Source: a virus (lineage: Duplodnaviria > Caudoviricetes). Taken from it: DNA of 64,000 nucleotides. Location of the stretch: the IMG/VR virus record IMGVR_UViG_3300044614_001923; one strand, written 5' to 3'. Below, one piece after another: positions 44,883-46,140 of this stretch. Under the pieces are notes generated by a model. The model ran no database searches, was not told the origin of the DNA, and was given only the letters and a program-made list of their open reading frames with translations. Position numbers and translations under genes: made by a program. Position 1 is the stretch's first letter, and each line of letters begins with the position of its first letter.

Positions 44883-45067
44883 TCTTTTTCCTCCCAATAC
44901 TCTCTTTCTTTTTTGCGTAGTTTTTTCAATTCCTTCATCATTTCCTTAATCTCTTGATATGCAACTTCGGGAGACATCTTATCTGACACTTCAAGTCCAA
45001 CAATATATTGAACTTTATCTCCAAACCTAGCAAGTGCTCTTTCAAAAGCAGTTAAATCTTCATACAT
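44879..45067 (-). CDS. Hypothetical protein (62 aa)
   Basis: MYEDLTAFERALARFGDKV; coupled at both ends. Confidence 0.75.
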   Translation of the reverse strand: MYEDLTAFERALARFGDKVQYIVGLEVSDKMSPEVAYQEIKEMMKELKKLRKKEREYWEEKE

Positions 45068-45234
45068 TAGATTTCCTCAGATGGATCATAATACTCAACA
45101 TCATCATCAACATAGGGAGTAATTTCTTCATACTCATAAAGTGAATCAAGATTAGAACCTTCGAGTTCTTCTTTTAAGGCATTAAGATTTGATTCAATTT
45201 CTTCAATTAGTTCAAATACTTTCTTTGTATTCAT
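45067..45234 (-). CDS. Small acidic hypothetical protein (55 aa)
   Basis: Not in the track; MNTKKVFELIEEIESNLNALKEELEGSNLDSLYEYEEITPYVDDDVEYYDPSEEI; TAATG coupling. Confidence 0.7.
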   Translation of the reverse strand: MNTKKVFELIEEIESNLNALKEELEGSNLDSLYEYEEITPYVDDDVEYYDPSEEI

Positions 45235-45257
45235 CTTGAATTAAATAGTCCCAATAT

Positions 45258-45286
45258 ATTCTACACAAAAAAAGAGGGGGAGTCAA
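45258..45286 (-). promoter_or_regulatory. Sigma70 promoter embedded in the terminator hairpin
   Basis: TTGACT (in the terminator loop), 17 nt, TAGAAT. Confidence 0.7.
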
Positions 45287-45296
45287 TCCCCCCTCT
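45267..45296 (-). terminator. Intrinsic terminator closing the riboswitch operon
   Basis: Minus strand AGAGGGGGGATTGACTCCCCCTCTTTTTTTG. Confidence 0.9.
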
Positions 45297-45324
45297 GATT
45301 TAAATATTTTTTCAAACCATTGCA

Positions 45325-45390
45325 CTAGATGAATACGATTGGTCTATTGTCCTTGTCTGTATCATCATAGTGATAATGGTAATCTTGCAT
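45325..45390 (-). CDS. Micro-ORF (21 aa), possibly a truncated remnant
   Basis: MQDYHYHYDDTDKDNRPIVFI; TAATG coupling to the 32-aa ORF. Confidence 0.4.
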   Translation of the reverse strand: MQDYHYHYDDTDKDNRPIVFI

Positions 45391-45488
45391 TACTTATTTC
45401 CAATAAGTTGTGCAAGTGATGCCTGGTGACGACGATTCTCCTTTTGTTTCTGCTCTTTGATGAGTTGAAGTACGTTGAGTTTTTTCAT
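45390..45488 (-). CDS. Basic micro-protein (32 aa)
   Basis: MKKLNVLQLIKEQKQKENRRHQASLAQLIGNK; TGATG coupling; GGAGG 8 nt upstream. Confidence 0.65.
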   Translation of the reverse strand: MKKLNVLQLIKEQKQKENRRHQASLAQLIGNK

Positions 45489-45625
45489 CACTTATGACCC
45501 TCCTTAGTGTACTTAACTCCGCGATAAACTTCGTTGTACTGTTGAGGTTGCTGCATCATTTGCTGTTGATACTCAAGACGCTTTTGCGTATCGTATTCAA
45601 CACCGCGATATACTACTTTAGACAT
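45488..45625 (-). CDS. DUF4278-type small protein (45 aa)
   Basis: MSKVVYRGVEYD...EVYRGVKY with two YRGV motifs; GGAGG SD; directly downstream of the glutamine riboswitch-like RNA. Confidence 0.8.
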   Translation of the reverse strand: MSKVVYRGVEYDTQKRLEYQQQMMQQPQQYNEVYRGVKYTKEGHK

Positions 45626-45639
45626 TAGGATTTCCTCCA

Positions 45640-45751
45640 GAATGAGATGATTAGTCCCGTTCCTTCGGGCGGTTTGCGTTTGCTATTTGCAAATAGCAAA
45701 TGAACGTTCCGTTCCGCCGTCCTACTTGCGTCCAGTTTCCTGGATGAACGT
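45640..45751 (-). promoter_or_regulatory. Tandem glutamine riboswitch-like leader (glnA / Downstream-peptide family)
   Basis: Two units CGTTC-A-hairpin-CGCA...GAACG (P1 = CGTTC/GAACG); the second ends GAAG-GAACG-GG...TCTCAT; DUF4278 downstream. Confidence 0.75.
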
Positions 45752-45757
45752 AAGGTC

Positions 45758-45786
45758 ATTATAGACCCATTACAATATCTATTCAA
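45758..45786 (-). promoter_or_regulatory. Sigma70 promoter for the riboswitch operon
   Basis: TTGAAT, 17 nt, TATAAT; predicted +1 falls at the first aptamer base. Confidence 0.8.
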
Positions 45787-45813
45787 GTAAATTTGTAAAT
45801 TACGATACAAATA

Positions 45814-46140
45814 TTATCTTTCGATATAACTTAAAGTATGACTCTGAGCATAAAGTTGTTGAATGATAATATCACAACCAATTTTAGGATTGCAATCTCC
45901 ACAAGTATAAACATCCACAGCTGCCTTACCATCCTCAGGCCAGGTGTGGATGCTAATATGACTCTCTGAAAGTAAGCAAAGTACGGTAACACCCTGAGGG
46001 TCAAATTTTTTAGATATTGTTTGTACTACGGTAGCGCCACTTGCTACTGCTGCATTTTCCAGTAGATCTATAAGACAACGTTCATCGTCTAAAAGGACAA
46101 ATGAACATCCGTACAGATTTAACAAGTAGTGCTTTCCCAT
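45814..46140 (-). CDS. speD: S-adenosylmethionine decarboxylase proenzyme
   Basis: MGKHYLLNLYGC..F.PQGVT...LSESHISIHTWPE...VDVYTCG (pyruvoyl cleavage at E-S). Confidence 0.95.
   Translation of the reverse strand: MGKHYLLNLYGCSFVLLDDERCLIDLLENAAVASGATVVQTISKKFDPQGVTVLCLLSESHISIHTWPEDGKAAVDVYTCGDCNPKIGCDIIIQQLYAQSHTLSYIER

Follow-up and report, generated by a model that had tools for sequence, protein, structure and literature searches.

The question raised by this locus is which of the very small reading frames behind a phage-borne glutamine riboswitch are genuine genes, what they are related to, and whether their products bear on the nitrogen metabolism of the host. The first-pass annotation of the window (the whole 64,000-nt stretch of viral DNA analysed here) described a closed operon in which a promoter, a riboswitch, three coupled micro-ORFs and a terminator follow one another, the terminator loop serving as the −35 element of the next promoter. 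It likened the second peptide to the factors that inactivate glutamine synthetase (GS) and suggested an effect on GS or nitrogen flux. That a glutamine-riboswitch-controlled small-protein gene occurs in cyanophages and in their hosts is known already (PMC2864571, PMC6212724, PMC9964418). The locus was compared with 11 loci from sequenced phages and with 80 IMG/VR loci whose ORF1 is 82–96% identical to that of the window; the latter are called the relatives below.

Layout of the Locus and Its Carrier

The minus strand contains every element, in the order given earlier: promoter, glutamine riboswitch, ORF1, ORF2, ORF3, terminator and the −35 element of the next promoter (Table 1). A closed operon running from promoter to terminator under a glutamine riboswitch is thus supported. 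The term "three coupled micro-ORFs" is not confirmed as it stands: ORF1 and ORF2 are conserved and under purifying selection, but ORF3 is the frameshifted remnant of a longer conserved gene.

Table 1. Features of the cassette and its immediate surroundings, in window coordinates.
Feature	Coordinates	Strand	Remark
speD	46140..45814	−	upstream neighbour of the promoter
Sigma-70-type promoter TTGAAT-17-TATAAT	45786..45758	−	predicted start coincides with the aptamer's 5′ end
Glutamine riboswitch aptamer, glnA type, 52-nt insert with second core	45752..45654	−	RF01739
Shine–Dalgarno sequence GGAGGA of ORF1	45637..45632	−	sequence reading
ORF1, 45 aa, two YRGVxY motifs, Gln-rich linker	45625..45488	−	DUF4278-like, IF17 N-terminal type
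Internal Shine–Dalgarno sequence AAGGAGG for ORF2	45505..45499	−	within ORF1 codons Lys-Glu-Gly
ORF2, 32 aa, basic, helical	45488..45390	−	TGATG junction with ORF1, stop and start having one base in common
ORF3, 21 aa	45390..45325	−	TAATG overlap with ORF2; N-terminal stub of ORF-C
3′ remnant of ORF-C, non-coding	45339..45297	−	reaches the terminator stem
Intrinsic terminator: 9-bp G+C stem (45296..45273), 6-nt loop, T7 run	45296..45266	−	sequence
Next promoter TTGACT-17-TAGAAT	45286..45258	−	its −35 is the terminator loop; drives the 55-aa ORF
55-aa acidic ORF	45234..45067	−	behind the terminator-embedded promoter

The cassette lies in the DNA of a T4-like cyanomyovirus, with speD, thyX, phoH and tRNA genes as neighbours, and the best DNA matches of the window are Kyanoviridae. 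The locus occurs in sequencing runs of lake DNA and in one RNA-labelled run, probably also of DNA, whose contigs cover 45454..45730 only. The best explanation is that the carrier is a freshwater (lake) T4-like cyanomyovirus and that the mini-operon is an early one, transcribed by the host polymerase. In the lake metagenomes, contig depth over 45428–45647 is several-fold above that of the flanks, and many variant contigs cover ORF1. The raised depth over ORF1 fits many co-occurring phage lineages sharing the gene, contig depth being a rough guide.

The Promoter and the Riboswitch Leader

The leader scores 40.7 bits against RF01739, for which the gathering score is 35, and is accordingly a member of the glnA-type glutamine riboswitches. 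The aptamer ends 28 nt before the ATG of ORF1. Of 79 relatives, 36 have a similar promoter whose end lies 7–8 nt ahead of the CGTTCA of the aptamer, and the Shine–Dalgarno sequence of ORF1 is kept in the relatives as (A/G)GGAG, 7–9 nt ahead of the ATG. Both types of glutamine riboswitch increase translation upon glutamine binding, as measured for host leaders (PMC6212724). By eye, the 5′ strand of the aptamer can be paired with the ribosome site of ORF1 in the window at 9 of 10 positions. As a switch mechanism, this anti-Shine–Dalgarno pairing was dropped because across 60 relatives it was no better than in shuffled sequences (mean z −0.38).

The leader region has further features of its own. 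A second glutamine-aptamer-like core sits in the insert of the aptamer, around the palindrome GAACGTTC. In phages S-PM2 and DSL-LC02, each of two aptamer cores scores 33–36 bits by itself, and the DSL-LC02 insert contains an annotated 50-codon ORF (L001, 1319–1471). Upstream of the cassette promoter there is an NtcA-type box, TGTA-N8-TACA (45794–45809, minus strand), whose spacing to the −10 element places its centre at about −50, compared with the canonical −41.5; a GTA-N8-TAC box is found 20–90 nt ahead of the aptamer in 41 of the 80 relatives.

ORF1 and ORF2: Conservation, Selection and Predicted Coupling

ORF1 matches the Pfam family DUF4278 (PF14105) at E = 0.0015 and 19.3 bits, under the curated cut-off of 25.3, and phrog_5049 at E = 1e-10. 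Its two YRG motifs are invariant, and its dN/dS is 0.045. Several public gene calls (P0001, P0011 and P0034) lengthen ORF1 to 90–96 aa by taking an upstream start and reading through the riboswitch; these over-long calls are a systematic mis-annotation of the cassette. A search for longer ORF1 homologues returned only upstream-extended gene calls, and no fused, IF17-like form was found. In phage S-H34, ORF1 (L007, 1301–1432) retains a shortened helix stub ahead of the first YRG.

Of the 80 relatives, 77 have ORF2 directly behind ORF1, the remaining 3 being cut by the end of the contig, and the pair is also present in the isolates S-PM2, DSL-LC02, S-H34, S-SRM01 and S-B68. The dN/dS of ORF2 is 0.154 in subtype a and 0.115 in subtype b. 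The variable sites of the tested frames lie mostly at third codon positions, and in 98% of the sequences stop codons close both alternative frames of ORF2. The encoded peptide has a net charge of about +6. On these comparative data, ORF2 is a genuine gene.

How would ORF2 be translated, being the second cistron? The ORF1/ORF2 junctions of the relatives are ATGA, GTGA or TGATG overlaps. The last codons of ORF1, Lys-Glu-Gly, contain AAGGAGG, which stands 8–10 nt ahead of the ORF2 start. Among 50 distinct sequences, the third position is G in 43 for the Lys codon and in 46 for the Glu codon, while neighbouring third positions vary freely. Such constancy of G at two positions is what a ribosome site maintained within a coding region would leave. 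With an overlap and an internal ribosome site both present, translational coupling of ORF2 to ORF1 is predicted. A predicted complex of the two peptides had a score of 0.00, which is evidence neither for nor against binding.

ORF3, ORF-C and the Optional Modules

A total of 15 of the 80 relatives close the cassette with a Cys-rich ORF of 51–56 aa, here called ORF-C, which has an acidic, His/Tyr-rich N-terminus, the invariant core ..PACY.LTYRGC.YWSCY..HL..WFE.. and a dN/dS of 0.086. AlphaFold2 models its product as a β-hairpin around the YRG turn (residues 19–34, pLDDT 73–85), followed by a helix. Alignment of the DNA with that of L016, L060, L013, L061 and L088 reveals that ORF3 consists of codons 1–17 of ORF-C, after which a 49-nt deletion (junction 45340/45339) alters the frame, so that a TAG is soon read. 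The deletion takes the whole hairpin core, leaving the window without an intact ORF-C. The former C-terminal coding sequence (..WFEKIFKSEGG) persists out of frame, since it doubles as the 5′ flank and stem of the terminator. The deletion allele is present in lake metagenome contigs from three studies (2016, 2020 and 2024) that cover 45133–45559, 44900–45569 and 44900–45471 with no differences. Because identical contigs come from three studies, the deletion is not an assembly error. The functional third peptide of 21 aa that had been proposed thus gives way to a broken stub: ORF3 is evidently a decayed remnant and not a third peptide family, and it may still be translated as a 21-mer.

An optional membrane peptide of 27–28 aa, with a dN/dS of 0.108, occurs in 28 of the 80 relatives and is absent from the window. 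Sequence searches of NCBIfam, Pfam and the PDB with ORF2, ORF3, ORF-C and the membrane peptide gave no match. A tblastn search with ORF2 in the phage collection gave a single match at E = 8, the query being too short for sensitivity, and look-ups in the ESM Atlas for ORF-C and ORF2 gave no usable lead.

The Terminator and the Embedded Promoter

The cassette ends in a G+C-rich hairpin followed by a U-run, as is proper to an intrinsic terminator; terminator-like sites numbered 10, against 0.6 expected in shuffled sequences. The terminator is present in 74 of the 80 relatives, TTGA[CT] lies in the hairpin in 66 of them, and a −10 element follows at 16–18 nt in 59. On these counts, the terminator with an embedded promoter is a conserved design.

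In intact cassettes (L016, 1436–1620, and its relatives), the stop codon TGA of ORF-C falls within the TTGAC of the terminator loop; one stretch is therefore stop codon, terminator loop and −35 element of the next promoter. The 55-aa ORF behind that promoter corresponds in position to a conserved protein of the relatives, MD.EKLKLIVRNLE...DYDE..DDDGYPD, encoded upstream of thyX, and the N-terminus of the window's copy of this acidic protein is strongly diverged.

Homology of ORF2 and the Arrangement of the Pair

The ORF2 peptides of phages fall into three subtypes with the common alignment M-N-x-L-x-x-I-(K/R)..K..(R)L..AQ(L). In the phages Bellamy, S-B43 and S-CAM9, the ORF2 motif begins one fused protein of 55 aa, phrog_545, which has two YRG motifs in its C-terminal half. 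Positions 1–22 of phrog_545 are matched by ORF2 of the window (E = 0.011) and by its homologues in S-PM2 (6e-4) and S-H34 (0.017), and positions 25–55 by ORF1 (E = 3e-4). There is no full-length phrog_545 match in the window; the two portions are covered by separate proteins.

With a profile of the phage ORF2 peptides, matching peptides were detected in 6 genomes out of a cyanobacterial sample of 401, and in 35 out of 201 from the small-genome family Cyanobiaceae. No ORF2 homologue was found in 30 genomes of the order to which a 4.8-Mb 'Synechococcus' MAG belongs, the wrong host group, the matches being in the small-genome Cyanobiaceae. The host peptides begin MN.L.LIR..I.K..RL..AQ and occur as helix-only 33-mers, as a helix followed by 2–3 YRG repeats (57–83 aa, weak DUF4278), or as a helix followed by other short tails. 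RF01704, the Glutamine-II riboswitch, is found above its gathering score directly upstream of these peptides at 4 of 4 and 18 of 20 loci (22/24 together), ending 15–20 nt before the start codon. When the profile of the phage ORF2 peptides was aligned with that of the host helices in hhalign, the probability was 97.8% (E = 9.8e-13, 27 columns), and ORF2 is 45% identical to the helix-only host peptides. ORF2 is accordingly a member, by homology, of the family formed by the N-terminal helix of the host Glutamine-II-riboswitch peptides. The 32-aa peptide, noted earlier as small, basic and helical, is a real micro-protein with host homologues directly behind such riboswitches.

In the window, ORF1 starts directly behind the aptamer, as the host peptides do; ORF2 does not, being a second cistron 164 nt behind it. 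Nor is there a single polypeptide with the helix before the YRG repeats: the window has two ORFs, YRG first and helix second. Because the helix is fused ahead of the YRG repeats both in hosts and in the phages with phrog_545, we conclude that ORF1 and ORF2 probably derive from one host protein, itself controlled by a glutamine riboswitch, whose copy in the phage has been split and its parts exchanged in order. A metagenomic protein of 127 aa (P0054) has the tandem organization helix-YRG-helix-YRG-YRG, and could plausibly be an intermediate between the fused form, with the helix first, and the split form, with YRG first.

A library-wide HMM search gave 65 clusters, all of them small peptides and none fused to a known domain; the tandem protein is one of them. 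AlphaFold2 models the host fused form as one long helix (residues 3–27, pLDDT about 82), the rest being of low confidence. Weinberg et al. (2010) described the YRG motif in 360 of 429 'downstream peptides', the rest being hard to align, and YRGxxY, as in the PII T-loop, in 355 of the 429 (PMC2864571). Genes that are linked to aptamers but match no Pfam family are mentioned by Klahn et al. (2018) (PMC6212724). In the papers searched, the helix module was not found described.

Two host subfamilies show other arrangements. In one (L231, L244, L245 and L218), also behind RF01704, the helix is joined to a tail ..(T/S)KxG.F.SYRPSVFEERQKQAREE..; in another (L234 and L248), the ..KAKRLH.AQL.. helix occurs twice.

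Proposed Mechanism and Alternatives

We read the observed anatomy, conservation, purifying selection, homology to host riboswitch-controlled peptides and decay of ORF3 together, and consider the following joint explanation probable. The glutamine riboswitch of the leader would gate the translation of ORF1, and ORF2, a basic amphipathic helix, would be made by translational coupling through the overlapping stop and start codons and the AAGGAGG inside ORF1. The two peptides would be the parts of a split host protein, acting together on a nitrogen-status target in the host, and the third frame would be the dead stub of ORF-C, a further optional module gene. If the phage switch behaves as the host leaders do (PMC6212724), it would turn the genes on at high glutamine, so that an infected cell replete in nitrogen would produce ORF1 and, by coupling, ORF2. 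From this regulation and from the published DUF4278 proposal (PMC6212724, PMC6316151), we infer, as the first-pass annotation did, a possible effect on GS or nitrogen flux; GS inhibition and PII T-loop mimicry are the two concrete proposals for the target, the support for each being contextual.

It could be argued that only ORF1 matters and that, between it and the terminator, ORF2 and ORF3 are chance frames of a 3′ untranslated region. The two frames are very short, most records leave them unannotated, and ORF3 is indeed not an intact gene. For ORF2, however, the conservation in 77 of 80 relatives, the dN/dS of 0.15, the closed other frames and the embedded Shine–Dalgarno sequence all speak against chance, as do its fusion to the YRG protein elsewhere and its host homologues with a riboswitch of their own, and we give this reading almost no credence. 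Mimicry of PII would have the YRGxxY of ORF1 imitate the PII T-loop and so draw partner proteins or modifying enzymes away from PII in competition with it, with assistance from the helix. The sharing of YRGxxY between the downstream peptides and the PII T-loop has been noted (Weinberg et al., 2010, Additional file 1; PMC2864571), and AlphaFold2 places the YRG motif of ORF-C at the turn of a modelled β-hairpin. Yet the likeness spans six residues only, and profile searches of the PDB with ORF1 and with the host fused form gave chance-level matches, PII not among them; such mimicry appears quite improbable.

The remaining alternative is a split mimic of IF17/IF7, in which ORF1 would correspond to the DUF4278 portion, while an arginine-rich helix, ORF2, would bind and inactivate host glutamine synthetase at high glutamine. 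YRG repeats followed by a basic helix is the order in real IF17 sequences behind glnA aptamers, the same riboswitch class regulates (PMC6212724), ORF2 is basic with conserved Lys/Arg, and DUF4278 proteins of picocyanobacteria have been proposed as possible GS inhibitors (PMC6316151). Against this, the N-terminal DUF4278 part of IF17 is reported to be dispensable for GS inactivation, and picocyanobacteria are reported to be without IF-mediated GS control (PMC6316151). As a reference for IF17 and IF7, 20 real IF17 and short IF7-like sequences were fetched from cyanobacterial loci by aptamer pattern. In hhalign comparisons with the IF7-like region, ORF2 (all sequences, and subtype a) and the host helix scored 8.4–10.3, values reached by 20–48% of column-shuffled controls; an alternative host C-terminal family (..LQRRL.VA..GD..) was likewise not above shuffles against ORF2. 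By eye, ORF2 resembles the IF7-like region in RR.QA...L..(I/V)G, a likeness without statistical support, and the arginine-rich C-terminal region of the IF7 type is absent from ORF1. Membership of ORF2 in IF7/IF17 is therefore not supported, and ORF2 as a homologue of IF7 or of the IF17 C-terminus was rejected, the profile–profile signal being no better than that of shuffled controls. The earlier likening of ORF2 to these factors therefore stands for a small, basic, helical peptide but not for homology. A functional analogy to IF17, a basic helix next to YRG repeats, is possible; the split mimic as such we regard as unlikely.

Relation to Known Systems

We return to the preferred reading, a riboswitch-gated ORF1 with a coupled ORF2 derived from one host protein. 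The closest parallels are the picocyanobacterial RF01704 peptides (e.g., the Prochlorococcus PMM1846/yfr6 locus; PMC2864571, PMC6212724), which likewise have a leader aptamer, small size, and a promoter and terminator of their own, and which share with the window the YRGxxY repeats of ORF1 and the MN.L..I..K..RL..AQ helix of ORF2. In contrast to these, the window has two cistrons, predicted to be coupled, with YRG first, an RF01739 aptamer with a nested core, and a viral location. The phrog_545 gene likewise follows a glutamine aptamer and has nrdC/speD on one side and thyX on the other, but it encodes one polypeptide with the helix first, whereas the window encodes two, the helix being the second and the YRG motifs being separated by a Gln-rich linker. 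The gifB gene (IF17) of Synechocystis sp. PCC 6803, under a type 1 riboswitch (PMC6212724), has the same riboswitch class and a DUF4278-type YRG portion followed by a basic helix. It differs in that IF17 is one chain of about 150 aa, compared with chains of 45 and 32 aa in the window, and IF7-like homology is not detectable here. In S-PM2, p190/p191 (AJ630128; hypothetical proteins, T4-like GC 872/873) present the order speD, aptamers, 56-aa YRG protein, overlapping 37-aa helix peptide and terminator; the peptides are about 40–50% identical to those of the window, and S-PM2 is without a third ORF.

What is new relative to the published accounts (PMC2864571, PMC6212724, PMC9964418) is the recognition of the helix as a conserved module in its own right, the split and swapped arrangement with its predicted translational coupling, and the optional membrane and Cys-rich peptides, together with the decayed third gene of the window.

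Significance

A second, unannotated module, a basic helix of 25 residues, joins the DUF4278 'IF17-like' regulon in hosts and phages, occurring alone, fused ahead of YRG repeats, or as a second cistron predicted to be coupled. Annotation is also corrected, since most records either miss the ORFs of the cassette or lengthen ORF1 across the riboswitch. Together, the optional membrane and Cys-rich hairpin peptides point to a modular micro-protein cassette that evolves fast in lake phage populations. The same cassette is available in a culturable system, as p190/p191 of S-PM2 in Synechococcus WH7803.

What the DUF4278 'IF17-like' proteins do in the dominant picocyanobacteria of oceans and lakes is the question that these findings address, and two separable parts are offered for it. 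Tentatively, and conceding that it may well prove wrong, we suggest that the helix could be the working part of an unrecognised class of picocyanobacterial glutamine-riboswitch regulators, which with the YRG peptide would form a two-piece inhibitor of GS or of a PII-pathway enzyme, deployed by the phage. If this were true, the phage would throttle the nitrogen assimilation of its host once glutamine is plentiful, in hosts said to lack IF7/IF17.
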